NCBI GenBank assembly: GCA_036172245.1
Contig: JAYWIR010000054.1
Span: 1-64,000 of the forward strand
DNA: 64,000 nt
Direction: 5' to 3'
Source: Raillietiella orientalis
Lineage: Eukaryota
The position numbers and the translations under genes were made by a program. This document shows positions 1 to 43,814 of the stretch, in pieces; the first letter of the stretch is position 1, and each line of letters starts with the position of its first letter. Below the pieces are notes generated by a model. That model was not told the origin of the DNA. It searched no databases and saw only the letters and a program-made list of their open reading frames with translations.

Positions 1-1605
1 CGACTTCCTGGGGGGTGCCTCCGAGGAGGAGGATCCGCTTCCAGCCCCCAGATCGCACTAACCTGCGGGGGCCTTCTTCGTCGGAGCCGACCTGCGTACG
101 CCCTTGCGCGACAGGGTTTCGCGCTCGGCGAGCGTTGCTGCGAGCTCCTCCGCCGCTTTCTCGAAGGCCGCGTCTTCGCCAGCGGCGACCGTTGCCGCGG
201 GCTGCTCCGCGACCTTATCGAGCGCGGAGTCATCGTTGACGGCGAACGTTGCCGCGGGCTCCTCCGCGACTTTATCGAGGGCGGCGTCCTGGCTATCGGC
301 GCGCGTGTCTCGCGTCTCACCCTCTAAACGTAGAATGGGCTCGTCCCCGCGAGTATTTATCGCGTCCGCATCAGCTGTTCCGCGAACATTGCCGCCGGCG
401 GGCTCGGCAGGAACGGCTAAGCGTTCGAGTGCCACCGAGCATTCGCGGAGCTGCTTTTTTTTTGAAAGCGGCGCCGCTTTTTTCTTGTTGCCGGCAGTTT
501 TCTTCTCCGACTTTTCTTCTGGCATTAATTTCTTTTTTTTTTCCTTTTTGGCCTGAACCAGCTGCCAACCCTCCTCCATTTCCGCGTACACGGGAGCTCT
601 TTTCTCCAACGTCTGTACGGGAGGAAGGGAGGCTGGCAGTTATGAACGGCCGTTTTCGCGAGCTGGTCTTTCTACCAGCTTTCCACGTTTTCCCTGCGCC
701 TTTTTTGCGGCAGGGGGCACCGGGGTGGGGCGCTTGGGGCACACGCGCCGAAAGTGACCCTTTTCGCCGCATAGGTGGCACACAATGTTCGGGCACCTTT
801 TTCGTAGATGCCCTACTGCATTGCAGTAGCCACAAAATTGGCGTTTCCCCACGTACCAGAGGTCAACCGCTTCTTGGCAGACCTCCAGCTTGTGAAGAAG
901 CGCACCACACTCTTTTACTGTGATACGCGCCGCAGCTTGACCTTCGAAAAGGCTATTGTAGCCTTGGAAAATCGTGGACTTCGGCCACAACGCGTGCACT
1001 TCTCCGTGCTTTTGTAGCTGTTCTCGAAATGATGACCTAGTCATTCGACTGGAGATCCCAGTGAGATGGACCACCACCGAGCGGTCCATCGTTATCGGCA
1101 AGATCTTCCAACCATCAACGATCAGCGGGTCGGTGATCAGGTGTCGGGCCAAGGTGATATCCTTGCATACCACCTAGACCCGCTGCCCGCCGCTGAGGAC
1201 GCAGAGGCTGTCCAGATCTTTGTCGAAAATATTGGCGTTCTGCAGCGCCTTCGTAAAGGCGCGTGCAGTTCGCCCATCGAAAAGGTTGCCTACCTTGTAG
1301 ACTAGCAAGGGTTTATATTCCGCTCTCTTGTAGGCTTCCATCTCGGCCATGGCTTCCACGCTAGGCGCGGCCACCATGGCGCTCCATGACCTCGACGTCG
1401 CCGGGGACGATTCCGGGGCGGAAGCCCCTGATCCAGTAGGCTGTGGGGACGAAGAAGCCTCCATCACGCCTACTTCCATCGCGGTGTCCTCTGGCAACGC
1501 TGCCATCGAACTCCGACGATGTGGACGCACAAATCACTCAAGAATCAAAAACACTCGCTTTGCCACGCAGGCGGAGCGAAGGAAAAACACGTTTGCTCTC
1601 CACAG
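1..1605 (-). mobile_element. L1-clade LINE family B2, copy 1 (5' UTR plus disrupted ORF1; runs off the window)
   Basis: Minus-strand ORF pieces 1174-1530, 640-1173 and 58-609 encode CCHC knuckles (CGYCNAVGHLRKRC, CHLCGEKGHFRRVC). Closely matches 26089-27700 in inverted orientation. 5' motif at ~1575-1600. Confidence 0.9.
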
Positions 1606-2447
1606 CGGGGATTCGGCCAAGGGGCTCGCTACGAACGCGCGTATTTGCACGCGCGTCGTCACGAGAGGAACCCCAATGTTTGTCGCCTGGCCGAATACCG
1701 CGCCGGAGCCGAGCGACAAGCCTGGCAATCCGGGTCAGCCAGCATGCTGGATGACATGGGCCGGGAACGTTCGACCCCGTCTGCGGTACGGAATCTCGTG
1801 CGGTGTTTTTATTCCTCCCTTTACGCCAAAACAACACCCGAACATGACGCCTCGCGGCGATTGCTCATGAGTGGTTCCGTGGCGATAGGGGAGGAGGAGA
1901 GAGAAAGCCTCGATGAGCCTTTCACGACCGGTGAAATTCTCGCCGGTATCAAAATGCTCAAGAAACGTGAGGCGTTAGGGGAGGACGCCTTGCCCGCGAA
2001 GTTCTTTCAGAGTTTCGCGAAAGAGCTGGCCCCCCTGGTGCTCCAGTTGACAAGGCGAATCTGAGACGAAGGCGATGTTCCCGCCTCGTTTCGGTCAGCC
2101 AGAGTGAGGCTCCTTCCGAAAGGAGGAGACCTCAGGAAACTTTGCAACTGGCGTTTGATCACGATTATGAACACGGACGGCATGTTGATCGCCGGGCTGT
2201 GGGCGTCGCCATTGAGGCGAGTGTCCAATTGCATAATTAGCCCGGAGAAGACTTACGCTGTTCCCGGATGAAGTATGGAGGACAACCTTTTCTTCGCGAG
2301 CACATGGATTCACGCGCAGCGAAGTAAGAAAGAAGAGAAAGCAAAAATTTGCAACCCTACTTTGAGTCCGCCAGTGGGACAGGGTGGAAACCCGCATGCG
2401 GGAAAGGGGGCCTTAGCGATCGCAGTCGACCTAAATAAGGCATTCGA
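1606..2447 (+). pseudogene. LINE ORF2 fragment (linker to RT KAFD), B/B2-type; host of two insertions
   Basis: Runs from GFGQGAR through EPFTTGEI and EDALPA to AIAVDLNKAFD, with stops. Homologous to 34835-35670. Confidence 0.88.
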
Positions 2448-4798
2448 TTTTCACTTGGATTTCCCCGGGGCGTTTATTGTAAAATAAACATTCATAAAGA
2501 CGCGCAGTGACTGGACCAGTGCTCCAGCCACGCATGAAGAAACACGGAGCCTTCCCGGTCACCGGTTCGCAGACCGGTACGGTCCATCTCGGCAGCAGGG
2601 GGATAAAGGACATATAAAAAAACTAAACAAAAAGAAAAGAAGAGGTGGGAGGGTAGGGGAAGGGATCACTTTTGCTGCTGGGGCCGCATCATCCTTCTCA
2701 GGATGCCGGCAAGCTCTCTCTGCATTTGCGGAACCAAGTGGGGCCATCGCGACGCCCTCCTCAGTAATTGGGAGGCGCACTGGATGGCACCCTTATCGCG
2801 GGGTCCTCCCGTAACCGTGCTCCAAGCGACGACGATCCGCGAAGGCAGCACAGGGTTGCTAACGAGGCCGCAGGCCGAAGGGCGTCGGCAACAAAGAGGG
2901 CTTTTAAGGCGTCCCTGGGGTTGCCGCAGGGGATTCCGATGGACGCGGCAAAGCGTAACCAAAGGAGCCGAAGGGCAACACAATACACAAGGAGGTGGGA
3001 TAGGGAGTCCTGTTCCCCACACCTGACGCAATTGGGGTCTACCGCTCCCCAGATCCAGTGGTGTCGGCGGGCGTTGCAGGGGAGTCCTCAGTGCTGCAAC
3101 AAGAGAGCTGACTCCTCCCATTCTAAGGGGAGGGTGATGGTTTTCATTAGTACCGGGGGCCACTTCAAACGTTCCATGGGAACGTCGAGCAGCGCGCCTC
3201 AGCGAACATGTCCATGGGGAGGCGTACACGGGGTGGAAGCGTTAGTTAGTTGACCCGTCTTCCACTCTCCTATCTTCTTCTCCTTCTCGGAGATTGTAAC
3301 TGTAACCTCCCACTTCGCCTCAACATCGCTGTCCAGATCTTCTATAAGGTAAAGCAGCGCAGCAGCGAGGGGGGTTCTTCCTGCCCACGCTCTCTTCTTT
3401 GGATCCTCCAGGATCTCGCGGTGCGTGCAACTTCTGTAATCCTTAAACAGGAACCTTCGTTCCTGTTGGGAGCGTTGCATGCCGAACAGTCCCCTCGTTC
3501 GAACGGTTTCCTGCAACCAGGCACTACCGTTCAAAGGGCGACAGGTGATCAATCCTGGGTTCTTCCGGTACAGCGCAGCCACCCTCCGTAGCTGGAGTCC
3601 GCATCGGTTGATGCGGCGACGGAGTGCAAGAAACGACGTCAGTCTCGTCTTTCCGGTGGCTTGCTGAAAAAGGAGACGTGCAGGGACGCACCAATAGGTG
3701 CACCACAACTCTGCAACAAGTGCCGACATTCGGAACTTGAGCTGAAGCTCCAGCAGCTCCAGCGTCAGGAGGCCCAGACCACCGTCCCGACAAGGAGCGC
3801 ACAAGTCGTTTAAGCAGACATGGGCTCTCTCGTTGCCACAAAGGGCGATACGGAGGAAGTCCTTTGTCCGCTTTTTAATCCTCTCTGTGGGGAGGGGAAA
3901 AACAACCAGGGGGCGGAAAAAAGGAGCCGCGAACGTGTTCCAAACCGCGGCCCGTTCAGGCAGGAAAAACCTGCCGCCTCGGAACGGTCCGATCGCCGTC
4001 TCTACTTTTTGGAGGCAGCAGGACCACGCTTCCGCAGGGGAGTAGTCCCCCAACGGCACACCAAGGTACTTGAAGTACCTTACCGTGGGATCCCCAAACG
4101 GACCTAGTCCTGCTGCCCTGCCCACGCCGCACCAACTGGCATCACGGACGACTTCGCCCTGTTCACCGTAAGTCCGGTTCCCCGATGCAGCAGGTCGAAG
4201 AACTCCTCGACCGCCGCAGCCGGGGTGGACATAGGAAGCAGCAGCAGAAGGTCCTCCGCGTACGCTGAAACGGCCGGCGTACCTGCACAGTCGTGCTGCA
4301 GGTGCGCCAGAGTTCCCCTGTACGCTCTCAGTACTAACTCAAAGTAGATACTGAAGAGCAAGGGGCTCAGGCTGTCTCCCTGCCGCATCCCACGCCGCAA
4401 CGGCACGCCGTGCACGGTCTGCCCCCTAAAAGAAACGTTGATGAGCGCGTCCCGCCAGCTGGACCGCAGATAGGCCACTAATGAGGCCGGAAAACCCAAG
4501 CGTTCCAGAAGCTCTAGAAGGAGATTCTGGTCGCCGCAATCGAATGCTTTCCGCAAGTCGATTGCGACCGCAAGGGCTCTCTCCCCCACCCGACCATCCG
4601 TCCCTATGCCGGCGCACGCACCGGAATTCTGGCCGCGCACCAAGCTCCTTTTTTGTTGGAGCTTTAGCCAGGTGGAAGCGTGGAACAGGTTCGCCTCCAT
4701 GCTTCGACCGGGAACAGCATATGTCTATTCCGGGCTGATGAAGATGTTGGCAACCCGTCCCAGACGCTCTGCCCAAACCTTAGCGAGCAACGTGGCGT
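2448..4798 (-). mobile_element. LINE family A, copy 2 (RT to 3' end, disrupted)
   Basis: DLRKAFD, GMRQGDSLSPLLF, YAED and YLGVP motifs. 3' UTR and terminal hairpin at 2448-2480. Inverted near-copy of 12390-14743. Confidence 0.92.
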
Positions 4799-4960
4799 GC
4801 GGACGTGTTTTTTCCGCGCTCCTCTGCGCCTGTTGTAAAGCGTTCTTTTTCGTTAGTGTTTGTGTGTGGAGCATTTGCGGTGTCCAATGGCAGAAATGCC
4901 TGAGGACACCGCGATGGAAGTCGCGGGGAAGAGGATTGTTTTTCTCCCCAACCTTTTGAG

Positions 4961-6895
4961 GTGAGGGCAACCGCCCATACGGAGGAGAGGGCAACCGCCC
5001 CCTTGAAAAAGGGGGCAACCGCCTCTTCGGAAACGAAGGCTACCGCCACCTTGAAAAAGGGAGCAACCGTGCTCGTGCAAAAGGCCGCAACCGCCCCCTT
5101 GAAAAAGGGGACAACCACCGCCTTGGAAAAGGGCGCAACCGCATCCTTAAAAAAGGAGGCAACCGCGTCTTTGGATCCTTTTTCGGCAACGACGAAGACC
5201 TATAGCTCCGTGGCTGCAGCGCCATCTCCTGCTGCCTTAGCAGAACAACGGGCCTACCTGAAACAAGGATACAAGCCGTCCTTGATTTACAAGGTAGGAA
5301 ACCTGTTTGTGGGGAACACCGCTCGTAAGTTTGAAAGAGAGTTACAGCGGTTGGATGTCAAAAAGGAAGACCTGGAAGGTCTCTCCGTGATGAGTGCGGG
5401 CCAGCGGGTTGAGCTGACTTGCAAAACTGCAAGTCTGGCACAACGCCTGCTGAACACTCCCATCACTCTGGAAGGCCGAAAGGTCTTCCCTGTAACGGAG
5501 GACCGCTCCATTGTTGCCCACCTTACCGGTGTTACTCTTCGCATGACCAAAGCTGGCGTGCAAGAAGAGTTGCAAAAACATGGTACGGTGCACGCGCTCT
5601 GGACCAAGCCCAACGTCTTCCAGACATACGGAAGACTGTTCAGTGGCATGGCTGCAGCGCGTGTGACCGTCCACGAAAACCGTGGGCTGCCCCACAAACT
5701 CGACGTCGGCAACGAGGTCGTCGACGTCTGGTACGTGGGCAAGCCCAAGTACTGTGGACACTGTGATGCAACAGGGCACCTGAAAACACGGTGCCCTCAC
5801 ATCCAGTGTTTTCACTGCGAAGAGAAGGGCCACCTCCGAAAAGTGTGCCCAAAGCGGGAACCTCCAGCGCCCTCTGCCTTGAAAAAAGGTAAGGGGAAAC
5901 GCTCGGAGAAAACAAGCAAGACCACTGAAGCAAAGGAAAGGCCAAGCAAAAAGCCAGAGTCCGAAAGCTCCCAGCAAACGGCGGTCGAGAAAACTCCCGA
6001 CGACGCTGGTGACAACGAGGACTGGCGGACAGCGAAGCCGAAAAGTAAAAAAAGCCGAAAAACCGAAGAATTCACAGCGGAACGCGCGACAACTTCTCTA
6101 AATAGAAGGCAACGCCGCGCTTTGCTCCGCGAATGTTCGGTTGCTTTGGAGCGAGTGCAGATCCCCGAGACCTCCACCGGGGGAGATATCTGCCGCCTCG
6201 TTGACGCCGGAGCCGCGATCGAGGAAGGCAAACCCTCTGTGCAAACAGAGGGGGAGCCGAGCGACGCGCTCGCCGTGAACGAGGACGCCGCCTTCCAGCA
6301 GGCGGCGGAAGAGCTCGCGGCAGAACTCGCGGAGAGCGAAAACGGCGCGCGAAAGGCCTTGCGAAGGCCGGCCTCGAGCAACGCACCTTTGACAGGTGAC
6401 TATGAACAGGATGCCGGAAGTGCGTCCTCCTCCACGGAGGCGCCTCCGAAGAAGACTGGACGGAAGTCCAAAAATCCAAAGAGGCGCATCCCGACAAAGA
6501 AGGAGGGGGACGCACCGGCAACCGAGGGGGAAGCCAGCAGCGTGGGAACGGAGGGAGGGATTTTCCCACCCTCCGCTACCGAGCAGCTGGCGACCCCCAT
6601 GGAGGAGGGGGATGAGGTGAGTGATTGCCGCCCCCTCCCAACGGTGGAGATAGCCATGGAGGAGGGGGAGCAGACAGCTGACCACCGCTCCCCCCTGCCG
6701 TCCAGCGCAGCCGAAGAATCGGCCCCCATGGAAGAGGGGGAGCAGGTGCGTGAAACCCGCCCCCTTCAACCGTTGCGGTCCGCCGAGGAATCGGCCCCCA
6801 TGGAGGAGGGACAACCGGTGCGCGGTGATCCCGTTCCTCCATCCGTCCCGCCCGACCAGGTGGCGGGAGCCCCATTGCCACTTTCCCAGGAGTAA
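4961..6895 (+). CDS. LINE ORF1 gag-like protein with two CCHC zinc knuckles (family B)
   Basis: 644-aa open frame with CGHCDATGHLKTRC and CFHCEEKGHLRKVC. The probable original ATG (MPEDTAME) at 4896 is out of frame with this ORF. Confidence 0.85.
   Translation: MRATAHTEERATAPLKKGATASSETKATATLKKGATVLVQKAATAPLKKGTTTALEKGATASLKKEATASLDPFSATTKTYSSVAAAPSPAALAEQRAYLKQGYKPSLIYKVGNLFVGNTARKFERELQRLDVKKEDLEGLSVMSAGQRVELTCKTASLAQRLLNTPITLEGRKVFPVTEDRSIVAHLTGVTLRMTKAGVQEELQKHGTVHALWTKPNVFQTYGRLFSGMAAARVTVHENRGLPHKLDVGNEVVDVWYVGKPKYCGHCDATGHLKTRCPHIQCFHCEEKGHLRKVCPKREPPAPSALKKGKGKRSEKTSKTTEAKERPSKKPESESSQQTAVEKTPDDAGDNEDWRTAKPKSKKSRKTEEFTAERATTSLNRRQRRALLRECSVALERVQIPETSTGGDICRLVDAGAAIEEGKPSVQTEGEPSDALAVNEDAAFQQAAEELAAELAESENGARKALRRPASSNAPLTGDYEQDAGSASSSTEAPPKKTGRKSKNPKRRIPTKKEGDAPATEGEASSVGTEGGIFPPSATEQLATPMEEGDEVSDCRPLPTVEIAMEEGEQTADHRSPLPSSAAEESAPMEEGEQVRETRPLQPLRSAEESAPMEEGQPVRGDPVPPSVPPDQVAGAPLPLSQE
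4967..5180 (+). repeat. 24-bp coding minisatellite (ATAPLKKG-like, ~9 units)
   Basis: gcaaccgcccccttgaaaaagggg-type units; peptide ATAHTEER ATAPLKKG ATASSETK ATATLKKG... Confidence 0.85.
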
Positions 6896-7083
6896 CACCT
6901 GGGCTCGCCTGTCGCCGTCGATTACGCGTGGCCTGCTGGAACGTGAACGGGCTGCGCGACGACGGCAACAGACGGGACACGGCCGCCACCCTGCGTGACT
7001 TCGACCTGGCACTCCTGCAGGAGATCCACGTGATCACCGCGGAGAACGCCCAGGAGATCGAAAGGATCGCAGGGGGACGATTG

Positions 7084-9175
7084 ATTGTCACCCGGGTGCG
7101 CCGGGGCGTTTATTATAAACTATCCGGGAACAGGGTTCCCGGACAAAGGGGAAAACAAGAGACGAAGGGGGTAGGATCCCCGACACGCAGGTCGGTGTGC
7201 CAAAAGTCCGGAACGGGAGGGAAGGGACCACAAACACACTACTATATAAAAAAATAAAAGAAAAATATGGAGGGCAGGGGACAGGGGTCTTTGGTAAATC
7301 CGTTCCTTCCTTTCAAAACCGGCGATGGATGCCGGCGATCTCTCTCCTTACGCCCTGTGTCAGATGGGCCCACTGGGCAGCCGACGACATGTTTGCGCTG
7401 GCTAATCCGGTGGGCTGACGAAGGATGGCCAGCTTCTCCAACTCTCGGTGGGCCTTGTCGATGGCGCGGGTGCAACACACGGTTGCAACGACAGCACCCA
7501 ATGACAGGCCGCCTGGCGTGAAGAAGCGGCGCATCAACTCCCTCGCGGTGTCCCCCTGATGCAGGAGAGCTGAGGCCAGCCTCCGCCAGAATCCTAGAAG
7601 GGCACCGCAGTCCAGGAGCAGGTGCGGGAGCGTTTCCACTTCCCCGCACCGCTTACAGTTTGGGGAGACGACTCCCCCGGAAACAAGGTTCGTGCGCTGG
7701 CTGGAGTGAAAACCCCAATGCACCAGCATCATCACATCCTGCTTCCACGAAAGGGGGAACACAGAAGTGTTCAGACACAAGGGAGGAACCACAAGTTCTT
7801 CAAGGGGCACACTCAAGTGTTCGCTCCACCGAAGGAGTCCCTTCGGAACGTGGCGAGGTGTGGCGGCGTCCGCCAGCTCGCAAGTCTTCCAGCCGCCAAT
7901 AGGTCGCGTTGTTCCTGCGATGGTGCAGGCGACCTCCCATCTCGCCGGTTCGCAACTGTCATCTCTTGCCCTGAGGGCTGACAGTGCGTCTTCGAGGGGG
8001 GTGACGGCCAGGCGGGTCCACTTCTCCTGGCTGTTGCACTCCTCATCCAACGTGCAGTACGGGGAGAGGTGAGCGCAACGGAGTTCCAGGAGGGAAACAT
8101 CCTGGTGCTTTGCCCAGCCATGCAACGGTTCCTGCCGCCAGGCTTGAAAGTTCGTTGGGCGGCAGGAGATCCATTCCTGGGCGTCCAGGAGCCGATACAG
8201 CGGTTTCAAGGGGAAACCGAAGCTTCTCGTGGCGCGCTCCGTGTGCGGCCGCAGCGACAGAAGTCCATCGCTGCCTGTGCAGCGCCGCAGAAGCAGGCGC
8301 GCGGGAGCGCACCACGGAGTGGACCAAAGGTTGGCGCACAGGGCCAACATCCGAAGCTGCACCTGCAGCTCGATTCTCTCCAGCGTCAGGATGCCTAAGC
8401 CAGCATCCCGACGCGGAGCCGCTAAGTCTTTGAGGCGGATCCTGGACCTCGCAGGTCCCCACAGAGCGTTCCTCAACAGGCTGTGCGCCTGGAGCTTGGC
8501 CGAGTAGGGGGGCGGGCAAACAAAAACCAGGGGGCGCAAGAGAGGGGCAACGAAGGTGTTCCAAATCGTGGCCCGCTCCGGCAGGACGAGCCTGCCATGG
8601 TGGAACGGGCTCAGGGCATTCAAAGCCTTCCGAAGGCAGTCCGACCACACTTCCATTGGGCTGATGTTCCCCAGCGGAACGCCCAGATATTGCACGGAGG
8701 AAGCGGTCGGGATCTCCAGGCGGATCCAGTCGGACTGCCCCTCCCACGCTGCACCAATAGGTAGCACCACGCTCTTGCTCCGGTTTAAGCTCATGCCCGC
8801 TCCCCGGCGAATCAGCTCGAAGAAGACCTCGAGAATGGACGCAGGGGTTGTCGTGGGTAAAAGGAGAAGGAGGTCGTCAGCATAGGCCGCCACGGACGGC
8901 GTTCCTGGACAAGAGCTCGGCAGGTTCGCCGGCGTCAGCCTGAAAGCCCTCAGCACCAACTCAAAGAAGATCCTGAAGAGCAACGGGCTTAAACTGTTGC
9001 CCTGCCTGATGCCCCGCCGCACCGGCACGCCGTACAAGTGGCATCCGCTTAAAGAAATGGGAATGCGCGCGTTGCGCCAGCAAGCGCGCAAATAGGACAC
9101 GAGGTGCATCGGGAGACCGAGGCGTTCCAGTAGCTCCAGCAGGAGATTCTGATTTACGCAGTCGAACGCCATGTG
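7084..9175 (-). mobile_element. LINE family D, 3' part (RT from AFD to 3' end)
   Basis: ORF 7313-9172 (619 aa) with GIRQGNSLSPLLF, YADD and CKRCGEVETLPHLLLDC. Terminal hairpin at 7084-7114. Confidence 0.93.
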
Positions 9176-9269
9176 CGCTCCAGGGCGGACGTGTTTTCTC
9201 GGTGCTCCTCGTGCCAGGAAGTCTCCCCCAGTGCAAGCGTCGTGTGGTTCGGTGGTCGATCAGGTAGCG

Positions 9270-10945
9270 ATGCCTGACGCGACCACCAGGGATAACCAGG
9301 GGGCAGCGGCAACGCCGCCCCCAGAGGCGATGGAGAGCCAGGGGGCGGCGGCAACGTCACCCCCAGAGGCGATGGAGGTGGGGGCGTCCGCCCCCACAGA
9401 ATCCGTCCCCGCTGCAGCGCGGGCGTGGAGCGCCGTTGTGTCGGCGCCATCGCCTGCAGCCGTGGCGGAATTGTCGGCCTATGTGGAAGAGGGGTACAAC
9501 CCCTCATTGTTCTACAAGGTAGGCAATTTATATCCTTTAGAGAGCGCGCGCGCCTTCTCGAAGGGCATGCGCGCTCTCGATGTGAAAGAGGAGGAGCTTA
9601 GTGCTATGACCATCCGCAGCGGGAGTCAGTACGTTGAGGTCATCTGCAAACATGCAGAGCTGGCCCAACGACGGCTTAAAACCCCCGTTGTGATGGGGAC
9701 GCGAAGGCTCCTCCCCACTACGGCGGACCGCAGCATGGTGGTCCACCTGTTAGGCGTGACCGCGCGAATGCGCAAAGAACAGGTTCGCGCCGCTTTGGAA
9801 CAGTTTGGAACGGTCCACGCGCAGTGGGCGAAAGTTAGTTCTTTCGAGGACTACACGGGGCTGCAACACGGCCTCACTGCTGCGCGCGCGACCGTTCGGG
9901 AGGGCTGCATTCTTCCCCACAAACTGGTGGTCGAAGGCGAAACCGTCGACCTCTGGTATGTGGGGAAGCCGAAATACTGTGGCTTCTGCAATACGTCGGG
10001 CCACCTCAAAAAGAGGTGTCCCAATGTGCAGTGCCAAGTATGCGGCACAATGGGCCACACGAGGGAGGTGTGCTCAAAAGCAGCAGTGCGGGTGGTTTCC
10101 AAGAGAAACCTTAAAAAACGCGCCCGGCTTCTGCAGAAAAGGCTGGCGGCGAAAGCTGCCGCGAAGGCTGTGCCACCCGCGCCCAAGAACCAGGCCGCAC
10201 CCGAGGCCCCGGCGACCAACGTCGAAAAAGTTGAGGGAGCCGGCCAGGAGACTGGGTGGCAAGTGGCAACGGCCAAAAAACCAAAGAAGGAGAGGAGGAT
10301 GGAGAAGAAAATCGCCTACCAACAGAAGAAGAAAGAGCAGGGTAGCGCGATAATTAAAGAGTGCAGCGTCGTTGTCGAACGCGTTCTCGATGTTGCCGAA
10401 CGCTGCCGGAAAAACTCGCCGCTACCGACGACCTCCCCTCTGTTGAAACAGTCAACAGCGAGGGGAGCGAGCCGGCGGCGGCGTCCGTCATCGACACCAC
10501 CATCGATGACGTAGCCTTCGCGCGAGCCGCGGAGGAGCTGGCAGCTTCGTTGCAGCCAGAACCCTCCAAGGCTGGCAAGAAGGCCGTAAGGCGTCCGGCC
10601 TCCCCTCAGGAGTCCCCCACTTCCGACACCGGGGTGGAGGCTGGAAGCGCAGCCTCCGTTTCCACGGCACTGCGCAAGAAGGCTGGACGTAAGTCCACAA
10701 AGCCAAGGAAGCTCGTCTCCCCCGTTGAAGGGGAAGAGATGGCTTCCGCAAGCGAGGGTGCCATCAGCGTGGGAAACTCTCGGGACCCGTCGCCCGAGAG
10801 ACTCCCACGCGCGGACACGGAGGGGATGGAGGGGGTGGAGGCCGAACAGGTGCCTTAGGTGCCTGAGAAGGCCGAAACCCCCATGGACATCCCGCCCGCC
10901 TTGCAAGAGGAGGGCTTTCCCACACCTTAATCTTCCCAGCAGTAA
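9270..10945 (+). pseudogene. ORF1 of A-1 (frameshift near 10400, premature stop)
   Basis: CGFCNTSGHLKKRC and CQVCGTMGHTREVC. Continues in ORF 10361-10858 and ends in a TAATG overlap with ORF2. Confidence 0.85.
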
Positions 10946-13900
10946 TGCCGGGAATCCCCTCCCGCCGTCGTCTGCGCATCGCCGTTTGGAACGTGAACGG
11001 CATGACAGACGCCGGCAGGAGACGAGACATGGCCGCCCTTCTGGAGTCCTACGACCTTGCGCTGCTGCAGGAGATCCACGTGATCTCTGCAGAACAAGCG
11101 CAAGAGATCGAACGGATCTCCGGAGGGCGGCTATGGTACAGGTGTGGTAGAGCAAAAAATTGCGGTGTCGCCTACTTGCTTCGGCCAGCCATCGAGGCCG
11201 CGGCACGGGGCGTCCGGTTCGACGATCACGGTCGTGTCGGCCAGCTGACTCTTAGGTGGTCCGACTTGATCGATCTGATCGTCACGAACGTGTACGCACC
11301 GAGCGGCAAGGACCTGATGAACAGGAGGGCGATGAAAGAGTTTTTCCTTGCCCTCCGGCGAGACTGGCTGACCGAAGCAGGCGTGCGGAATGCCCATCTA
11401 ATTGCAGGAGATTTCAACGTCCGCATGAAACCAGATGATCAGAATCGCGAGCGTGACCTGGTCAACGAGGTGTGCATGGCGGTGCACACCTGTAATCTGC
11501 TGGCCAGTGCACCGGGGATGGAAGACAGCATTGACCACGTGTTTCTTGACGAGCACCTGTGCCCTCGCGTGGGCAGGCGCGGCAAGTTACCGTGCGAGCT
11601 GTCCGACCATCGCCCGCTAGTCCTCGAGATCCATCCGCGCGACAGGCGCCCCTTCTCGTCAGCGTGGCGTCTCCCAGGGGACTGGCTGAAGCTCCTTGAC
11701 GCGGCGGAACATCTCCGCACGTTCATAGGGAGTTTCAGGCTGCGGACACTCCAGGATTGGGACCGCTTCAAGCGGTCGGTCCAGGAGTTCTGCGACCAGT
11801 TCCCTTTGCACCGCCTACCTACGGGTTTTGGGACCGGGGTCCGTAACGAACGAGCCTACCTGCTGGCCCGTCGTTACGCCAGGACCCCCGACATCCGCAG
11901 GCTGGCAGAATACAAAGCGGGAGCCGAGAGGCAAGTCTGGCAGTCCGGATCGTCCAGCTTACTGTACGATCAGGGCCAGGAGCACTCGGCACCTCCCCAA
12001 ATCCACGGCCTGCTGCGAAGTTACTACTCCTCCCTGTATGCCAGGGCACCTCCGGAGAGGAACGTCTCACGACTCCTGCTTCCGGAAGGCGCTCCAGCGA
12101 TCGAGGAGGAGCAGAGAAAGACCCTCGACGAGCCTTTCACGACGGACGAGATCCTTTCGGCCATCGGAAAGCTCAAGAGGCGAAAGGCTCCAGGGGAGGA
12201 TGGCCTGTTTGCGGAGTTTTATCAAACTTTCGCGGCTAAGCTTACACCCCTGGTACAGCAACTTACCTTGCTGATACGCGAAACAGGTGACGTTCCCGCC
12301 TCGTTTCGTTCGGCAAAGGTGCGGCTCCTCGCTAAGGGAGGAAATCTGAGAAGCATAAACAACTAGCGTCCCGTCACAATAGTGAATGCGGACGCCAAGT
12401 TGCTGGCTAAGGTTTGGGCAGAGCGTCTGGGACGGGTTGCCAACATCTTTATCAGCCCGGAACAGACATATGCTGTTACCGGGCGAAGCATGGAGGCGAA
12501 TCTGTTCCACGCTTCCACCTGGCTAGAGCTCCAACATGAAAGGAGCTTGGTGCGCAGCCGGAATTTCGGGGCGTGCGCCGGCAAGGGGCTGGATGGTCAG
12601 GTGGGTCAGGGAGCCCTTGCGGTCGCAATCGACTCGCGGAAAGCATTCGATTGCGTCGACCAGAATCTCCTTCTGGAGCTTCTGGAACGCTTGGGCTTCC
12701 CGGCCTCATTAGTGGCCTATCTGCGCTCCTGCTGGCGCGACGCGCTCATCAATGTTACTTTCAGCGGGCAGACCGTGCACAAAGTGCCGGTGCGGCGTGG
12801 GATCCGGCAGGGAGACAGCCTGAGCCCCTTGCACTTCAGTACCTATTTTGAGTTGGTACTGAGAGCGTACAGGGGAACTCTGGCGCACCTGCCGCACGAC
12901 TGTGCCGGTACGCCGGCCGTTCAAGCATACGCGGACGACCTTCTGCTGCTGCTCCCTATGTCCACCCCGGCTGCGGCGGTCGAGGAGTTCTTCAACCTGC
13001 TGCATCGGGGAACCGGACTTACGGTGAACAGGGCGAAGTCGTCCGTGATGCCAGTTGGTGCGGCGTGGGCAGGGCAGCAGGACTGGGTGCGTTTGCGGAT
13101 CCCCACGGTGAGGTACTTCAAGTACCTTGGTGTGCCGTTGGGGGACTACTCCCCTGCGAAAGCGTGGTCCGGCTGCCTTCAAAAAGTAGAGACGGCGATC
13201 GGCCCGTTCCGAGGCGGCAGGTTTTTCCTGCCTGAACGGGCCGCGGTTTGGAACACGTTCGCAGCTCCTCTCTTCCGCCCCCGGCTTTTTGTTTGCCCCC
13301 CCACAGAGAGGATTAAAAAGCGGACAAAGGACCTCCTCCGTATCGCCCTTTGGGGCAACGGGAGGGCCCGAGTCCGCTTAAAGGACTTGTGCGCTCCTCG
13401 TCGGGATGGTGGTCTGGGCCTCCTGACACTGGAGCGGCTGGAGCTTCAGCTCCAGTTCCGCTTGTCGGCACTCGTTCCAGAGTTGTGGTGCACCTGTTGC
13501 TGCGTCCCTGCACGTCTCCTTCTCCAGCAAGCCACCGGCAAGACGGTACTGACGTCGTTTCTTGCACTCCGTCGCCGCGTCAACTGATGCGGACTCCAGC
13601 TACGGATGGTGACTGCGCTTTATCGGAAAAACCCAGGATTGCTCACCTTTCGCCCGTTTAACGGTAGTGCCTGGTTGCAGGAAACCGTTCGAACGTGGGG
13701 ACAGTTCGGCATGCAACGCTCCCAACAGGAACGAAGGTTCCTGTTTGGGGGTTACAGAAGTTGCACGCTCCGCGAGATCCTGGAGGATCCAAAGAAGAGA
13801 GCGTGGGCAGGAAGAACCCCCCTCGCTGCTGCGCTGCCCTCCCTGATGGAAGATCTGGACAGCGATGTTGCGGCGAAGTGGGTGGTTAAAGTAACAATCT

Positions 13901-14526
13901 CAGGAAAGGAGAAGAAGATAGGAGATCGGAAGACGGGCCAGTTAACAGACGCTGCGACCCCGAGTACGCCTCCTAATGGACTTCTGCGCTGGGGCGCGCT
14001 GCTCGATGTTCCCATTGAACATCTGAAGTGGCCCCCGGTGCTCATGAACACTTCCGCCCTCCCCTTAAAATGGCAGGAGTCGGCTCTCCTGTTGCAGCAC
14101 TGGGGACTCCCCTGCAACGCCCGCCGACACCACTGGACCTGGGGAGCGGTGGACCCCAATTGCGTCAGGTGTGGGGAACGGGAGATCCTCCCCCACCTGC
14201 TAGTGGATTGTGTTGCCCTTCGGCCCCTTTGGTTTCGCTTTGCCGCGGCCATCGGAATCCCCTGCGGCAACCCCAGTGGCGCACTGAAAGCCCTCTTCGT
14301 TGCCGACGCCCTTCGGCCAGCGGCCTCGTTAGCAGCTTTGTGCTGCCTACGCGGGATCGTCACCGCTTGGAGCAAGGCTACGGGAGGACAACGCGACCAG
14401 AGTGCCATCCAGCCAGCCTCCCAGTTCCTGAGGAGGGCGTCCCGATGGCCCCACCTGGATCCAGGAATACAGAAGGAGCTTGCCGGCATCCTGCAAAGGA
14501 TGCAACAGCCCCACCAGCGACTGTGA
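10945..14526 (+). pseudogene. ORF2 (APE endonuclease-RT-CCHC) of A-1 with two in-frame stops
   Basis: ORFs 10945-12366, 12382-13587 and 13606-14526 share one frame. Motifs WNVNG, NVYAP, GDFN, SDH, PGEDG, KAFD, YADD and CVRCGEREILPHLLVDC. Confidence 0.93.
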
Positions 14527-14743
14527 TCCCTTCCCTTACCCTCCCAACTTTTCTTTTCTTTTTTGTTTTGTTTTTTTGTTTTTCCCCCTTCCCCCTGCTG
14601 CCGTGGTGGACCGCACCGGTCTGCGAACCGGTGACCCGGCAGGCTCTGTTTCTTCGTGCGTGGCTGGAGCAATGGTCCAGCCACCGCACGTCTTTGTAAA
14701 AGTTTATTTTACAATAAACGCCCCGGCGAAATCCGGGTGAAAA

Positions 14744-15655
14744 TCGAACGCCCTGCGGGGATCGACCGCGACCGCCAAGGCACCCGGCGCTTCCTCAGGC
14801 CGAATACAGCGACGCCTAGCCCTGGCAGCCGCAGATGCGGTTGCCTGGCTGTTGTGCGTCACGCGACGTTGCAGCTCGAGCCACGTGCACGCGAAGAACA
14901 GGTTCGCCTCCATGGACAGCCCGGGAACAGCGTAAGTCTGCTCCGGACTTACCACGGATCCAGCGTTCCTGCCTAGGCGCGCGACCCACAGCCTGGAGAA
15001 CAACTTGACGTCCGCCTTCACCAAGGTGATGGGACGCCAGTTGCTTAAATGGCGCATGCCTCCGCCTTTCGACATGATACGCACCCTTGCTGAGCGAAAC
15101 GAGGCCGGGACATTGCCCGTCTCTCGCATCAGCGCATTAAGCCTCAGCACCAGGGGGATGAGTTCCGCCGTGGAGCACTGGAAGAACTCCGCAGGCAGAC
15201 CATCCTTAACTGGCGCCTTGCGCTTCTTGAGGCTCGCTATGGCGGAAGACACTTCTTCCGCCGTGAAGGGCAAGTCAAGAGTGGCGCGTTCCTCCTCGTC
15301 GACCGCAGGGGAATCCGCCGGCAGAAGCAGCTCCGAGAGACTGCGTTCTGTCGGCTCCCTAGCATACAACGAGGAGTAGTAGCGCTTTAGGAGGCGGCGA
15401 ACTTCGGCCGCGCCCGAGCACTCCAGGCCCTGGTCGTCGAGCAGACAAGCCGCTCCTGACTGCCAGACCTTGCCCTCGGCCTTGGCCTTGTACTCCGCAA
15501 GGTACCGGACGTTCGGGCATCGGGAGAATTGGCGGGCCTGCAGAAACTCTCTGCTGTTCGCCACGCTTTCCCCGAAGCCACGGGGAAGCTGCCGCAAAAG
15601 GAACCGGCTGCAGAACTCGCAGACCGATCTTTTCAGATCGTCCCAGTCCACGAGC
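14744..15655 (-). mobile_element. LINE family D, middle part (linker to RT AFD)
   Basis: DWDDLKRSV...WRPITLV...AVAVDPRRAFD. Joins 9175 across the A-1 TSD. Confidence 0.9.
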
Positions 15656-18600: not shown

Positions 18601-21191
18601 TCGGAAAGCTCAAGAAACGGAAGGCTCCAGGGGAGGACCGCCTGCCAGCGGAATTTTTTCAATGTTTCGCGGCAGAGCTCACTCCTCTGGTGAAGAAACT
18701 CACCTTGTTGATCCGCGAAACGGGCGACGTCCTCGCCTGGTTTCGTTCGGCAAAGGTGCGTCTCCTCCCTAAGGGAGGAGACCTTCGGAGCATGAGCAAC
18801 TGGCGGCCGATTACCGTGATAAACGCGGACGCTAAGTTGCTGGCGAAATTGTGGGCTGAGCGCCTGGGGCGGTTAGGAGAAAGCTTCATTAGCCCGGAGC
18901 AGACATATGCTGTTCCCGGGCGGAGCATGGATGCCAACCTGTTCCTCGCCAGCACCTTTTTCGCGCTTTAACAGGAAAGGGTCATTATAAGCAACCGGAC
19001 TTCCGGGATGTCCGCCGCTAGGAAACAGGATGGTTGGGGGGGAAGGAAGCCCTCGGAGTTGCAGTCGATTTGCATAAAGCATTCGACTGTGTCGACCAGA
19101 GGCTCCTCCTGGAGCTCCTGGAACGCTTGGGCTTTTCGGTCTCTTTGCTGACCTATCTGCGATCCTGCTATCGCGACGCGCTCATCCAGATCTTTTTCAG
19201 TGGACACACCGTGCACGGCGTACCGGTGCGACGCGGCATACGGCAGGGAGACAGCCTGAGTCCCCTGCTCTTTAGTACTACTTCGAGTTGGTACTGAGAA
19301 CGTACAGGGAAACTCTAGCGCACCTGCCGCGCGAATGTACCGGTACTCCTGCGGTGTCAGCATATGCAAACGACCTTCTGCTGCAGCTCCCTATATCCAT
19401 CCCGGCATCAGCGCTCGACGAGTTCTTCGACCTGCTAAGTCGGGGAAGCTGGCTTGAGGTGAACAGGGCGAAGTCGTCCTTCATGCCAATCGGTGCGGCG
19501 TGGGCAGGGCAGCCGGACTGGTCCGTTTGGGGATCCCAACGGTACGGTACTTCAAGTACCTCGGTGTACCGATGGGTGATTATGTTTCTTCGGATGCGTG
19601 GTCCAGCTGCCTTCAAAAGGTAGAGACGGCGACCGGCCCGTTCCAAGGCCGCAGGTTTTTCCTGCCGGAACGGACCGCGGTGTGGAACGCATTCGCGGCG
19701 CCCCTATTCCGTTTCCTGCTTTTTGTTTGTCCCCCCACCACAGAGACTAAAAAGTGGACGAAGCACCTCCTAAGGATTGCCCTGTGGGATAATGGGAGGG
19801 TCCGAGTCCGGCTTGAGGACTTGAGCGCTCAGCGTCGGGACGGCGGTCTCGGCCTCCTGACGCTAGAGCGGCTGGAGCTCCAGCTCCAGTTTCGGTTATT
19901 TGCCCTAGTGGCGAAATATTGGAATAGCAGTTGGTGAGAGCCCGCACGTCTCCTCGTCCAGCAGGCTACAGGCAAGGTGGGACTGTCATCCTTCCATGCG
20001 CTCCGTCGGCGCCGCCTTGTCGGTCACTGCGGGTTGCAGCTACGGAGAGTGGCTGACCTGATGAGGAAGAACGCAGAATGGCTCTGCTGTCGCCCCGTTA
20101 ACGGACCTGCATGGCTGCAGGAAACGGTTCAAACGTGGGCAAGGAGCAACCAGAAACGCACCCAAGAAGGGCAGAGAGAATTCTTCGCCCGTTATGACCG
20201 CCTGACGCTCCAAGAGGTCCTGGAGAACCCCCAAAAACGAGCGTGGGCAAGAAAAACTCCCCTCGCTGCAATGCTGTTTTCGCTCGCGGAACATTTAAAC
20301 AGCAACACTGCTGCGAAATGGGATGTTTACGTCACAATCTCCGGTACGGAGAAAAAGATCGGGGAATGGAAAACGGGAATTCTCTGCGATACCGCGGCCC
20401 AGACTACCACCCCTATTGGACTTTTGCGCTAGGGCGAGCTGCTTAATGTTCCGCGGGAACAATTAAAGTGGCCCCCGGTGCTGATGAACACCTCCATCCT
20501 CCCCTTAAAATGGCAGGATTCGGTGCTATTGTAGCTGCATTGGGGACTCACCTGCAACGTTTGCCGACATTATTGGACCTGGCGAGCGGTGAGCCCTAAT
20601 TGTGCGAGTGGTCGAGAACGGGAGTCAGTCACTCACCTCCTTTTGGATTGTGTGGCTCTTCGGCCTCTTTGGAACCGTTTTGCCGCGGCAATCGGTAACC
20701 GCTGTGGCAACCCCAGAGACGCAATTAGATCTTCCATCGTTTGCGACGCCCTTCGGCCCTCGGCCTCGTTAGCAGGTCTGTGCTGCTTTCGCGGATCGTC
20801 GCTGCATAGAGCAAAGCAACGGGAGGACCTCGCGATAAGGGTGTCGTCCAGTACGCAGCCGAAGTTATGCGGACGGCGACAGGATGGTCCCATCTGGATT
20901 CAAACATCCAAAAACAGCTTGCCAGCATCCTGGAAAGGATGTAACGGCCCCACAGCAGACTGTGATCCCTTCCCGTGGCCCCCAGATCTTGATTTTATAT
21001 ATTTCTTTTTTTTTGTTTTATTTTTTGTTTTGTCCTTGGCCCCTCTGCTGTCGTAGTCGACCGTGACCGAATACGAACCGGTGACCCGGCAGGCTTAATT
21101 TTGTATGCCAGTGCGTAGCCGGACAACCTCGTCAGCCACCAACGTTTGTTTTATTCCAAAGAATAAACGCCCCGGCGCAACCGGATGAATA
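15656..21191 (+). mobile_element. Full-length degenerate LINE family E
   Basis: 5' motif at 15660. ORF1 ~15757-17376 (CGHCSTSGYLKKRC). ORF2 ~17382-20965 with several stops and frameshifts. 3' hairpin at 21162-21191. Confidence 0.92.
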
Positions 21192-23148
21192 ACGATCTCT
21201 CGAACGGCCAAGGTCCGGAGATGCTAACGGAGGTGCTCCGCACCCAATGGATTTCTCAACCAATCGGCCGGCAGCTTCCAGACGTGCGTCGTAGGGCCCA
21301 TGCCATGCGGGAGTAGCTCAAACTCCATCCTGTAGTGGTCGGAAAGCTCGGAAGGCACGGGACCTTTTCGACCCACCTGAGAATGCAGGTGATCGTCGAG
21401 GAACACATGGTCCAACAAAGCACGCTTTTCGGGATTGTCGGCCAGCAAATTCAAGGCGTGCACCGACGCGCACACGTCGTTCACGAACCGTTTCTCCCGG
21501 CGACGGTGAGACTTCTCCGATAGCGCGTGGACGTTGAATTCCCCGGCTACGAGGTGAGCCACGTCTGGACTGGAGTTATTGAGCTTGCGGTAGCGCAGTC
21601 TCTTGAGAAACTCCAGTTTCTAGGTGCGACGCGCGGAGCCCCTCGGCGCGTACGCGTTCGTGACGACAAGGTTGATCGATTCGGACCACTTGAGAACAAG
21701 TTGGCCCACACGACCTTCCTCGTCGAAACAGACGTTCCAACAGGCCACTCGGACGCGGCAAGAAGAAGCGAGACCGCGCATTGCTGCTACCGACATGGAG
21801 GTGCGTTCCTCGCCTCGTCCGGCAAGCCATGAGCCGGGTGCACGGCGGATGAGGTAGCGCAAGCGCTTCCTATCCCCACCGCGCCGCTCGCGGCTTGCTC
21901 GGTGGAGTCGAGTATCATTGCCTCGGGCTCCGAGAAGCATCGGGAACCGTTATCGGCTTCAGGCTCTTGCCTGGGAAGTTTTCGCTTGCGCGGAACCCTG
22001 GCTTTGACCGGGGCTTGGCTAGGCTTAGCGCCGACCTCGGACTCCACCTCGGCGTCCGAATTCCGCACGCACAACGGGCGTTTCGCCTGCTTTTTTTTTT
22101 GCTGGCATCCCGGAGCTGGTCCAGCACACTTGGAGGGTGCCTTCGTCGCCAATCCACCTTTCGGGGTCACGGCTTCGGCGGCTCCCCTCTCGCCGCGGGT
22201 GTTTGCGGCAGCGCGCGCGGCGGCAGCAGAGGCTTTTTCTTGCGCTTTCCTTGCCTCGCGGGGCTGCCTCTTCACCCCGCCTACCTTTTCGATCGGGAAG
22301 TGGGAAGGATCGCGCGGTTTGCGCTCCTTCTTTCTTCCCACAACAAAGGTCCTGCCATCCTCGCCGCCTTCCGGTTTGCCTTGGTCTGGCGCGAGGGCTT
22401 CCAGGGTCCTTCGCATCCTTTCCAAGGCCTCAGTTTCGGCGATAGAGGCCAGTGTCTCCTTCGCCACGTCTGCCTTTTGCACGTCCTTACCGGAAGGTGT
22501 GGGCAGAGTGGCGGCATTCTCGGGGGTGGTGCGGGGCTTTTTAGCGTTTGCTGGCGTTCGGCCCGCCGTGTCCGGCTTGCCTGTCGCGGGCAAAGGGGCG
22601 CGCGACCCCTTTTTCGACGCTCCGGTGGACTTCCCGGGTGTGCCACCGCTATTTCTCTCCGGAGCGAGAGCGGACGGAAGCGGTGGTCTTGCAGCCTGCC
22701 CGATGTTATCGGCAGGCTAGGTCGTTCGAAGCTTTACGGAAGCAGCTTTCTGAAGCTTCTTGTCCTTTCGCGCGGAGTTTTGTGGAGCATTGCTCCGAGA
22801 TTCGCCCGCGCAAGCGGACCTTTTACTTCTCCGTTGCGAATCCTCGTTCGCGCCGGATTTCTTCCTCGACGACGGTGCGGATGGAGTCGGCGCGTACGAC
22901 GCTGTTGCGAGGAGGTTTCTCGCCCTCATCTTTCGTTTTAGCTCGGCGCACTCGCTAATCGAGTGGCCGAGCAGCTTACAGTATCGGCAACTGCGTGTTG
23001 GGCACTTCCGCGGACGGTGACCCTCCTTGACGCAGTTGCCGCAAGCGGGCGTTTGCCCGGCAAACCGGAGATAGACGACGACGTCACCGAGGAGGATCTG
23101 CGAAGGCATCAGCCTCTGGTCGTCCATGGTGACGCACGCCGTCGCGAT
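21192..23148 (-). mobile_element. LINE family D: ORF1 3' part and endonuclease (internal deletion)
   Basis: CGNCVKEGHRPRKC and CRYCKLLGHSISEC. ORF2 start MRGLASSCRVRVACWNV at 21781. HLVAGEFN and SDH present. Reading frame continues into 15655. Confidence 0.88.
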
Positions 23149-28515: not shown

Positions 28516-28689
28516 GAGTGCGGACGTGTTTTTCTTCGCTCTCGTCTCCGTGCTTTCATCCGCTTCATCTTGGCGTCGTACATTTTGACGACGATGTCGA
28601 CCCAACTTGAAGCTACTGAAGTTTGAGGAACAGCATCCGGATCTGCAATCGCGGAACCGACGGCCGCCTCCACTTCGTCTTTCTCGCCA

Positions 28690-33500: not shown

Positions 33501-34108
33501 CCTGGAAGACTAGTGAGTTGGCGGACGCCGCCACTCCTCGTGTTACTGCAAAGGGACTCCTCCGGTGGGCAGAAGAACTTGCTGTCATCCCCGAAGAACT
33601 TGTAGTCCCTCCACAGTGTATGGACAGTTCGCTGCTCCCCCTTGCTTGGAAACAAGCCGTGCTGCTTTTCGTTCACTGGGGTTTTCAGTGCAACGAGCGT
33701 TGGCATCGTGACTCCGGGGGACTTGCGTCTGCGAACTGCGTTCGGTGCGGATCGACGGAGTCGATTCCGCACCTACTTCTGGACTGCGGTGTCCTACAAG
33801 GACTGTGGCGTAGGCTGGCAACAGCACTAATGCTTCCCGTGGACACCGCAAGAGACTTGCTGCGGCGATTCTTCGCGCCAAGCGGGCTATCTACAAGCGC
33901 AAGGATTGCAACCATCGGTTGCATACGCGCGATAGCTTCCGTCCGCCAGGCGTTGGTAATCAACAAACAGCACCAAGAGGTAATCAGCAAAGCATCCTTC
34001 TACATGGGAGCATCCGCTAGATGGCCTCATTTGACAGAGGAGACAAAGAGGAATCTCGCCGCAATACACCGCCGGTTTACACACCCTCATCAGCGGCCAA
34101 CCCGGTGA
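30516..34108 (+). pseudogene. ORF2 of H-1 (stop at 31467-31469, frameshift near 32855)
   Basis: WNVNG, GDFN, SDH, PGEDG, DLHKAFD, YADD and CVRCGSTESIPHLLLDC. Confidence 0.92.
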
Positions 34109-34421
34109 TCATTGCCCTACCCTCCATAAACTAAAATTGTATTTTCTTTTTACACCCGCGTCCCCATAGGCTCCGGAACATTTTAGGTGCTCATCGTATA
34201 AATCCCCGTGAGTACGGAGCCTAACCAAAAACCCGTTACCCTTCCCTCCAGTTTTTGATTTTTGTTTGTTTCCCCTCATTCCCCCCACGCTGCGAGCGGT
34301 TTGTTTACCAGGCCTGCGTGCCGGTAATTTTTCTGTGTTCTCTGTCGTTCTATTGGTTGGGGACATTGTCCCTGACCAGTTTATTATTATTAATAAACGC
34401 CCCGGCGTGACCGGGTGATAA

Positions 34422-40693: not shown

Positions 40694-40699
40694 ACGTGG

Positions 40700-41177
40700 C
40701 CGTAGTGACGCCTTGTCCCCCCCCTCTTCTGTAGCAGTCCTCTGCTGCATTCGAGGGATCGTGGCGGCTTGGAACGCCACCAGAAGAAGACGTCAGCCAA
40801 CCGGCAACGCCTTACGGTTCACTCGCCTATTCGTCCGAGACATCTGCAAGTGGCGCCACTTGGGCGCAGAGAGGACTCAGCTTGTACGGATCCTGAATAG
40901 GATCTAGAAAACCTATCCGCGCGCACGGTGATCCCCTCCCTGCCCTCCCATTCCCGAAATATTTGTTCCCTCCCATACTTCAACTATTTGTTTGTTTTTT
41001 GTTTTTTGTTTTTTGTTTTTTTTCTCTTTCCCATCCCCCGCGCATCGGATGGACCTCTCCGGCATACCGCCGGTAAATAACAAGCTGTTTTGTAGTGGTG
41101 GACCTTTGGGTTCAACACGCGACAATCAATTGTAATTTTATTCTTTTGAATAAATGCCCTGGCATATCCGGGTGAAA
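40700..41177 (+). mobile_element. Tandem 5'-truncated family C copy (~480 bp 3' end)
   Basis: Near-identical repeat of 40225-40693, including the terminal hairpin. Confidence 0.9.
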
Positions 41178-41179
41178 AC

Positions 41180-43810: not shown

Positions 43811-43814
43811 TGGG

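Follow-up and report, generated by a model that had tools for sequence, protein, structure and literature searches.

Family A of nested LINEs in Raillietiella orientalis lies twice, antisense, at the same reverse transcriptase codons of two different host LINEs

A 64,000-nucleotide stretch of the Raillietiella orientalis genome (GenBank assembly GCA_036172245.1, contig JAYWIR010000054.1, positions 1 to 64,000, hereafter the window) is a localised cluster of nested copies of long interspersed nuclear elements (LINEs), in which each element is broken by the next. One LINE family, here called family A, was found at the identical nucleotide position within the reverse transcriptase (RT) gene of two different host LINEs, both times in antisense orientation, and it is fairly probable that this family is truly site-specific. 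Site-specific insertion of LINEs into LINEs is moreover supported as a general rule in the window, because three further families show recurrent base-exact junctions at other motifs of the second open reading frame (ORF2). Copies were grouped into families by blastn, and every junction was read directly from the sequence.

Results

Two family A insertions at the same codons of the RT gene

The two family A copies, named A-1 and A-2, their target sequences and their host elements (D and X) are arranged as follows.

9171-14743, plus strand: A-1, full-length family A LINE, both junctions read directly
9162-9170, no strand assigned: left copy of the target-site duplication TCGAACGCC, which is (R/M)AFD of host D read in antisense
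14744-14752, no strand assigned: right copy of the duplication TCGAACGCC, adjoining the A-1 tail GTGAAAA
7085-9170, minus strand: 3' part of host D, from ORF2 amino acid 567 to the end, with the 3' untranslated region and the terminal hairpin
14744-15655, minus strand: middle part of host D, ORF2 amino acids ~268-569, which resumes at 21190-21754 past an insertion of family B
2448-4798, minus strand: A-2, family A, 89.7% identical to A-1 positions 3222-5573, with its 3' end at 2448
2439-2447, plus strand: A-2 target GGCATTCGA, which comprises the (K)AFD codons of host X and whose last base adjoins the A-2 tail
1604-2447, plus strand: host X, an RT-bearing LINE fragment covering ORF2 amino acids ~294-569

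The first-pass annotation of this DNA had proposed that A-1 splits a minus-strand D element at the AFD codons, and the directly read junctions bear this out, with the RT frame resuming across the insert. The 3' end of A-1 reads ...AATAAACGCCCCGGCGAAATCCGGGTGAAAA and is followed at once by TCGAACGCC, a string that occurs only at these two places in the window. Read on the minus strand, host D runs ...AVAVDPRRAFD up to 14744 and continues with MAFDCVNQNLLLELLERLG from 9172, i.e. (M)AFDCVNQNLLLELLERLG, and a local alignment of host D to the ORF2 of A-1 stops at amino acid 568 on one side and restarts at amino acid 567 on the other. Since the halves of host D are read on both sides of A-1, a single RT frame has been split, with 9 bp duplicated. 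The exact 9-bp duplication thus stands as annotated, whereas its suggested extension to 14 bp is weak, as 9171-9175 (ATGTG) and 14753-14757 (CTGCG) match at 3 of 5 positions.

The 3' end of A-2 at 2448 adjoins the AFD codons of a plus-strand RT gene, again as annotated: its tail GTGAAAA, the same as that of A-1, meets GGCATTCGA. In A-2 orientation the tail is followed by TCGAATGCC, the reverse complement of ...AAGGCATTCGA, which closes the plus-strand frame ...AIAVDLNKAFD of host X. Two elements delimit this host: to the left, R (below), whose 5' end lies at the TGFG codons, and to the right, A-2 at KAFD. By blastn, host X is nearest to element H, with 79.4% identity over 843 nt. A-2 itself is not simply truncated at its 5' side, but is broken at ~4795-4800 by the 5' end of the full-length LINE E.

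The stretch AVDxxKAFD, which I take to be RT motif A with the first catalytic aspartate, corresponds at the junction segment to 'LDFAKAFD' in an alignment with the RT of Bombyx R2. The KAFD site covers ORF2 amino acids 566-569, and family A lies antisense to it at the 5' end of A-1, the 3' end of A-1 and the 3' end of A-2. Both family A 3' ends of the window (2/2) consist of the tail GTGAAAA followed by TCGAAYGCC, and since the same four A's are present in the tails of both copies, the tail of family A is encoded and is not a free poly(A). The claims that A-1 and A-2 share one nucleotide position, both antisense to the host RT, and that their host families differ were likewise upheld, the 300-nt downstream flanks being 64.4% identical.

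Independence of the insertions and distribution of the target 8-mer

Identity between A-1 and A-2 is 89.7% across 2356 nt and 83.8% in their last 300 nt, compared with the 64.4% of their host flanks, in which blastn aligns only patches of 70-141 nt. Because a duplicated junction would be expected to diverge equally on both sides, A-1 and A-2 are two separate insertion events.

The 8-mer TCGAAYGC that begins both 3' flanks occurs 21 times on the two strands of the window. Thirteen of the 21 occurrences are in RT-motif context and correspond to 12 sites before insertion (the duplication around A-1 is counted twice); GCRTTCGA is carried by all 12 RT copies in the window. Family A occupies two of these 12 RT sites and none of the eight others. 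Its own RT gene carries the target as well (GCATTCGA at 12643-12650 on the plus strand of A-1, and further copies in A-2 at 4540 and in an A-like element, A-3, at 60068), so family A can target itself. Outside the RT motif, the 8-mer is also found on the sense strand of A-3 (TCGAACGC, 52534-52541), in the EIERI codons near the GGRL site described below, where it is unoccupied.

Structure, decay and affiliation of A-1

The first open reading frame of A-1 (ORF1, 9171-10514) encodes 447 amino acids with two CCHC knuckles. Its ORF2 frame (10945-14526) encodes an endonuclease of the apurinic/apyrimidinic endonuclease (APE) type, an RT and a Cys-rich C-terminal region, and is interrupted by an in-frame TAG (12364-12366) and an in-frame TGA (13585-13587). 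The only uninterrupted ORF2 of the window belongs to another element, which was used for comparison.

36875-40432, plus strand: ORF2 of element I, family F, 1185 amino acids, with APE and RT domains and a sub-threshold zf-RVT match

Element I is without an ORF1. Pfam searches of A-1 returned Exo_endo_phos (PF03372, 3.3e-13) and RVT_1 (PF00078, 4.8e-17), and PF03372 was found in element I at 1.4e-16, while zf-RVT (PF13966) scored 20.4 bits in A-1 and 23.8 bits in element I, both under the cut-off of 27.5 bits. Structures of the L1 endonuclease matched at ~1e-4. For the whole ORF2 of element I, the best solved relative was human L1 ORF2p (2e-46, against ~2e-14 for R2); the 401-amino-acid RT piece of A-1 alone scored alike against R2Bm (5.6e-12) and L1 (1.2e-11). 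Because of this domain content, and because human L1 ORF2p is the best solved relative, the elements of the window are, as judged from sequence, L1-lineage LINEs of the APE type. Target-site duplications are present (9 bp for A-1, 8 bp for G and 15 bp for K, the latter two described below), and terminal repeats are absent. The poly(A) tail of the L1 lineage was not found, as the tails (GTGAAAA, GTGATAAA and GTGACAA) carry 2-5 A after a conserved hairpin.

The protein collection yielded no close relative; its best matches were 24-30% identical, the top one being a 1329-amino-acid 'pol-like protein' of Danio rerio with 27% identity. A protein cluster atlas returned generic RT clusters only.

One DNA sequencing run (X1), which contained 0.25 of the sequence words, contributed 362 fragmentary contigs over 8944-15043. 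At position 12365, all six covering contigs (6/6) have G where A-1 has A; the TAG of A-1 is therefore a private decay of TGG to TAG, and other copies of family A exist in this run. Differences between the window and the contigs were rich in transitions (C>T 157, G>A 138, A>G 115, T>C 110), transversions numbering 40-64 each. The contig joints all proved to be paralogy artefacts that joined the RT of D with the RT of A-1, and were uninformative on the flanks of family A; among the loose ends of contigs listed (6 of 244), none lay at 14743.

Sister families and their insertion sites

At least seven LINE families coexist in the window, and four of them have a base-exact site of their own to which they recur: KAFD for family A, GDFN for G and K, GGRL for the D family and TGFG for the H family. 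Together, these four sites account for 7 of the 11 hairpin-bearing 3' ends and 7 of the 10 full-length 5' ends. The elements concerned, other than those of family A and host D, are the following.

28516-34422, plus strand: G, full-length LINE, in sense at the GDFN codons in the APE domain of H; 8-bp duplication TTTCAATC at 28508-28515 and 34423-34430
52852-58576, plus strand: K, related to G, in sense at GDFN of the A-like A-3; 15-bp duplication ATTTCAACGTTCGCC at 52837-52851 and 58577-58591
43791-45336, plus strand: N, copy of the D family with 89.6% identity to D; next come 15 nt AAGCCGCCCTCCTCC (45322-45336), antisense GGGRL, and then the 5' end of element P2 at 45337
42840-43550, minus strand: P, whose 5' end ATTGTTCGGACGTG at 43550 adjoins, in antisense, the GGRL codons of the A-like A-4 (43551-43810)
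26091-28507, plus strand: 5' part of H, whose 5' end GTGGAGAGCGGACGTG adjoins GCCGAATCCCCGTT, the antisense TGFG codons of element F
1-1603, minus strand: R, H-family copy, 93.7% identical to H, whose 5' end adjoins GCCGAATCCCCGCT, the antisense TGFG codons of host X, with the same junction as H
50634-51113, minus strand: L, unassigned LINE 3' end, with the flank GCATCGCCGAAACC, the antisense TGFG region of element M (ORF2 amino acids up to 296)

The GDFN site covers ORF2 amino acids 155-158, within the endonuclease domain. The coding parts of G and K are 79-86% identical and thus less diverged than the coding flanks of their hosts (61-63%), which argues that the two were inserted independently. 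The GGRL site (ORF2 amino acids 60-63) is used in antisense by the D family: the 3' end of D at 7085 adjoins the antisense GGRL codons of LINE E, and when the 3' ends of D and N are compared, the elements are 89.6% alike and the flanks 48%. N and P2 stand head to tail with a 15-nt copy of the target between them, as would be expected from repeated insertion into one site.

The TGFG site (ORF2 amino acids 293-296) is occupied in antisense by the H family. The 5' junctions of H and R are identical, reading GCCGAATCCCCG(T/C)T and then GTGGAGAGC, and at these junctions the elements are 91% alike and the flanks 65.5%. The hosts of H and R are unrelated to each other (junctions 26077-26106 and 1588-1620). 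The 3' end of L (50620-50652) lies in the TGFG codons of a third host and implies a duplication of ~17 bp.

Other junctions were seen once each: B in D at amino acid 269, E in A-2 at amino acid ~480, and a 5' end at 61954. Family F was found at two places, within an ORF1 (element F) and, in tandem copies, at CGTGGCCG. This head-to-tail array (36600-42896) consists of element I, a 476-bp stub (I') and element J, and its 3' ends are followed by CGTGGCCG (40695, 41179).

Shared termini of the LINE families

The families of the window have a common 3' terminus, for which A-1 serves as the example.

14713-14743, plus strand: 3' terminus of A-1, AATAAACG, with a 5-bp hairpin CCCGG/CCGGG, the loop CGAAAT and the end TGAAAA

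Every LINE family in the window ends in AATAAA(C/T)G, the hairpin CCCGG/CCGGG, and TGA plus 0-4 A. This 3'-terminal pattern gave 11 matches against 0.74 expected (e.g. 14713-14743, 7085-7114 and 34392-34422), and 0 matches in metagenome, prokaryote genome and viral contigs. The hairpin loop differs by family, being CGAAAT in A, CGTGA in G and K, CGCAC in D and N, CGCAA in B and CGTAT in L; in F and I an A follows CCCGG, and the loops are ACAT and ATAT. No convincing complementarity was found between the tail or the hairpin loop of family A and its target. A search of metagenome contigs by RT alignment returned 13 loci with 25-45% identity over short stretches only, which were regarded as distant LINEs and were not used.

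Full-length 5' ends share the motif GAG(N)GCGGACGTGTTTTT, with seven matches against 0.71 expected and three further 5' ends seen, and this shared motif may act as a promoter or initiator within the element. In A-1, it is preceded by 15 additional bases. The string GAGCGGACGTGTTTTT was observed ~5-15 nt from 5' junctions at 1583-1598, 4797, 9183, 15658, 26096, 28518 and 61954.

Other content of the window

The G+C content of the window is 51-63%, and in a tblastn map LINE coding sequence covers most of the 64 kb on both strands, with no ORF match at ~45363-47450 and ~51113-52286. The former interval is the interior of P2 (45363-47450), which is without a LINE ORF or other recognisable coding sequence. 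P2 and P share only their first ~27 nt, as the 41-nt match between them includes 14 nt of flank. The interior of P2 may represent captured DNA of unrelated origin, or else a non-autonomous derivative.

Discussion

Proposed mechanism

Quite probably, family A is an autonomous L1-clade LINE that uses target-primed reverse transcription to enter a single defined sequence, as one of at least four sister families with different sites in ORF2. The endonuclease of family A would nick the sense strand of the RT gene of a host LINE at 5'-GCRTTCGA^Y-3', in the A-F-D codons of motif A, possibly assisted by the divergent C-terminal domain. The freed 3'-OH would then prime cDNA synthesis on the encoded 3' end of the family A RNA, i.e. 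the hairpin plus GTGAAAA, with the shared hairpin as the putative recognition signal of the RT. As the 3'-OH of the host sense strand would prime on the 3' end of family A, the element would always come to lie antisense to its host. Cleavage of the second strand 9 bp away would produce the duplication of TCGAACGCC. The process would thus be ordinary target-primed reverse transcription to which a sequence-specific nick is added. In the same manner, G and K would use GDFN in sense, D, N and P would use GGRL in antisense, and H and R would use TGFG in antisense. The elements would consequently pile into each other and also into their own kind, the latter because the RT of family A itself carries the site.

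To judge from the analogous R1 and Tx1 groups, specificity is probably determined by the APE domain. Identity between families, with within-family rows and partial fragments left out, is 50-63% for APE, 33-49% for the C-terminal domain and 56-70% for RT; the low values for APE and the C-terminal domain make both of them candidates for this role. The targets are the most conserved nucleotide stretches of ORF2, which fits landing in a multicopy, self-renewing and harmless target.

Alternative explanations

If insertion were uniform over ~5.5 kb and both orientations, a second copy would hit the base and orientation of the first with p ~1e-4. It is nevertheless conceivable that family A has a short, L1-like nick preference of ~5-7 bases around TCGAA, and that the matches to RT reflect the frequency of this string in a LINE-only region, without any homing. 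How well this accounts for the data depends on the length that is recognised: if TCGAA alone were recognised, both matches would fall into RT context with p ~(13/133)^2 = 0.01, which speaks against it, while TCGAAY (13 of 59 window sites in RT, p ~0.05) and TCGAAYG (13 of 36, p ~0.13) are easier to reconcile with chance, and the flanks of several families begin with a loosely similar T-C-R-A-W-Y. A short preference would leave unexplained the base-exact recurrent sites of three other families, each with its own distinct sequence, and I consider this explanation unlikely. With n=2, random insertion and recognition of five bases or fewer are excluded, and a nick site of 7-8 bases is not separated from homing to the motif; the data cannot tell recognition of the RT motif from a nick before TCGAAYG(C), which is commonest here in RT genes.

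Specificity could also reside in the RNA, if transcripts that read through into the downstream UCGAAYGCC annealed to the nicked target, so that daughter copies would inherit the site of their parent. Such annealing of read-through RNA is reported for R1Bm and R2, and a scheme of this kind would be in keeping with a short, encoded tail that has four A's in each copy, and with the observation that each family keeps to one site. No complementarity to the target was seen in the tail of family A itself, however, so that pairing would need read-through, and a correctly placed nick would still be required; specificity in the RNA is therefore a quite improbable replacement for an endonuclease that finds the site, and would refine that explanation more than replace it. 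That both family A junctions are copies of one ancestral insertion, spread by segmental duplication or gene conversion, deserves mention since the region is highly repetitive and a tandem duplication lies nearby (40695, 41179). This is scarcely credible given hosts from different families, with flanks only 64.4% identical over 300 nt against 83.8-89.7% for the ends of the A elements themselves.

Several observations weigh against the preferred explanation, a sequence-specific endonuclease in each of several sister families. There are only two insertions of family A, both within one 64-kb window, and 10 of the 12 RT sites are empty, including those in young-looking copies. Three families (B, E and F) have no recurrent site at a coding motif, and not every relative is thus demonstrably site-specific. 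The termini of G and K are no more alike than their flanks, so that the independence of these two insertions rests on coding identity. On its 5' side, N adjoins A-4 at amino acid 145 and not the expected GGRL partner; some junctions have therefore been rearranged. Covariation in the hairpin was seen at 0 of 5 pairs, and its structure is an unproven prediction. Finally, the endonuclease activity and the RNA end are both predictions from sequence.

Implications

Site-specific LINEs are known for ribosomal DNA (rDNA), telomeres, small RNA genes, microsatellites and one DNA transposon. If a LINE took the most conserved codons of LINE RT as its landing site, and sister families took other motifs of ORF2, the problem of finding a safe harbour would be solved in a new way, as the target would be multicopy, renewed by the elements themselves and harmless to the host. 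I would tentatively go further and suggest, with a confidence that falls a little short of even, that the window contains a guild of sister L1-like families which live only on LINEs. Each endonuclease would have evolved for a different ORF2 motif (GGRL, GDFN, TGFG or KAFD), some families inserting in sense and some in antisense, and the families would parasitise, inactivate and stack on one another and on themselves, thereby building LINE-only islands of the Zepp or centromere type.

If true, this would supply a base-level mechanism by which nested insertions come to be aimed at existing copies, as well as a case of target-site partitioning among competing retrotransposons. It would also explain, at the nucleotide level, the growth of LINE-only nested clusters such as those that mark centromeres in green algae. 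Moreover, it would supply a natural series of related APE endonucleases with specificities of 8-15 bp, which would be useful for understanding and redesigning LINE targeting.

Comparison with known systems

Human LINE-1 resembles the elements of the window in the order of APE and RT, in target-primed reverse transcription and in short target-site duplications. The nick made by L1 follows a loose TTTT/AA consensus and can fall almost anywhere, and L1 carries a long poly(A), whereas family A has a specific site and is without poly(A). The elements R1 and R2 in 28S rDNA and TRAS and SART in telomeric repeats are similar in choosing a single defined base within a conserved multicopy sequence, in keeping a fixed orientation and in having precise, encoded 3' ends. 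They differ in belonging to other clades (R1 and R2) and in targeting RNA genes or telomeres of the host and not retrotransposons, and R2 differs further in its restriction-like endonuclease. In the R1 clade, the APE endonuclease is reported to set the insertion site (PMC1919474; PMC7265360).

In arrangement, the window is like Zepp of Chlorella and Coccomyxa and ZeppL-1_cRei of Chlamydomonas, which the accounts consulted describe as L1-clade LINEs found almost only in clusters of nested copies; here, 64 kb are made up of LINEs inside LINEs, plus the head-to-tail array of I, I' and J. Those accounts, as far as they extend, describe no base-level target in RT or endonuclease codons for Zepp or ZeppL, and mention one family per species in Chlamydomonas. 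No published case of a LINE targeting an RT motif was found in the full-text literature, a search that stopped short of the primary Zepp papers (Higashiyama 1997, which may describe target sites) and of Repbase notes. Zepp has a poly(A) tail (PMC3747384), while the elements of the window end in a hairpin plus 2-5 A, and the two are likened by arrangement.

Tx1L and Tx2L of Xenopus, together with the Tx1 group (Keno, Mutsu, Kibi and Koshi), share with the elements of the window the APE-type endonuclease, the CCHC-type ORF1, the sequence-specific insertion and the possibility of a transposon as target. Tx1L lands in the DNA transposon Tx1D. Two papers list 'transposons' among the targets of site-specific elements without long terminal repeats and name the Tx1 clade as one of three main site-specific groups (PMC4640811; PMC3747384), and the former places most site-specific elements among early-branching lineages and in the Tx1 and R1 groups (PMC4640811). 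Compared with the Tx1 group, the targets in the window are protein-coding sequences of other LINEs and of the same family, at motifs of catalytic domains, and several sister families divide the motifs of ORF2 among themselves; the likeness between the two is one of features.

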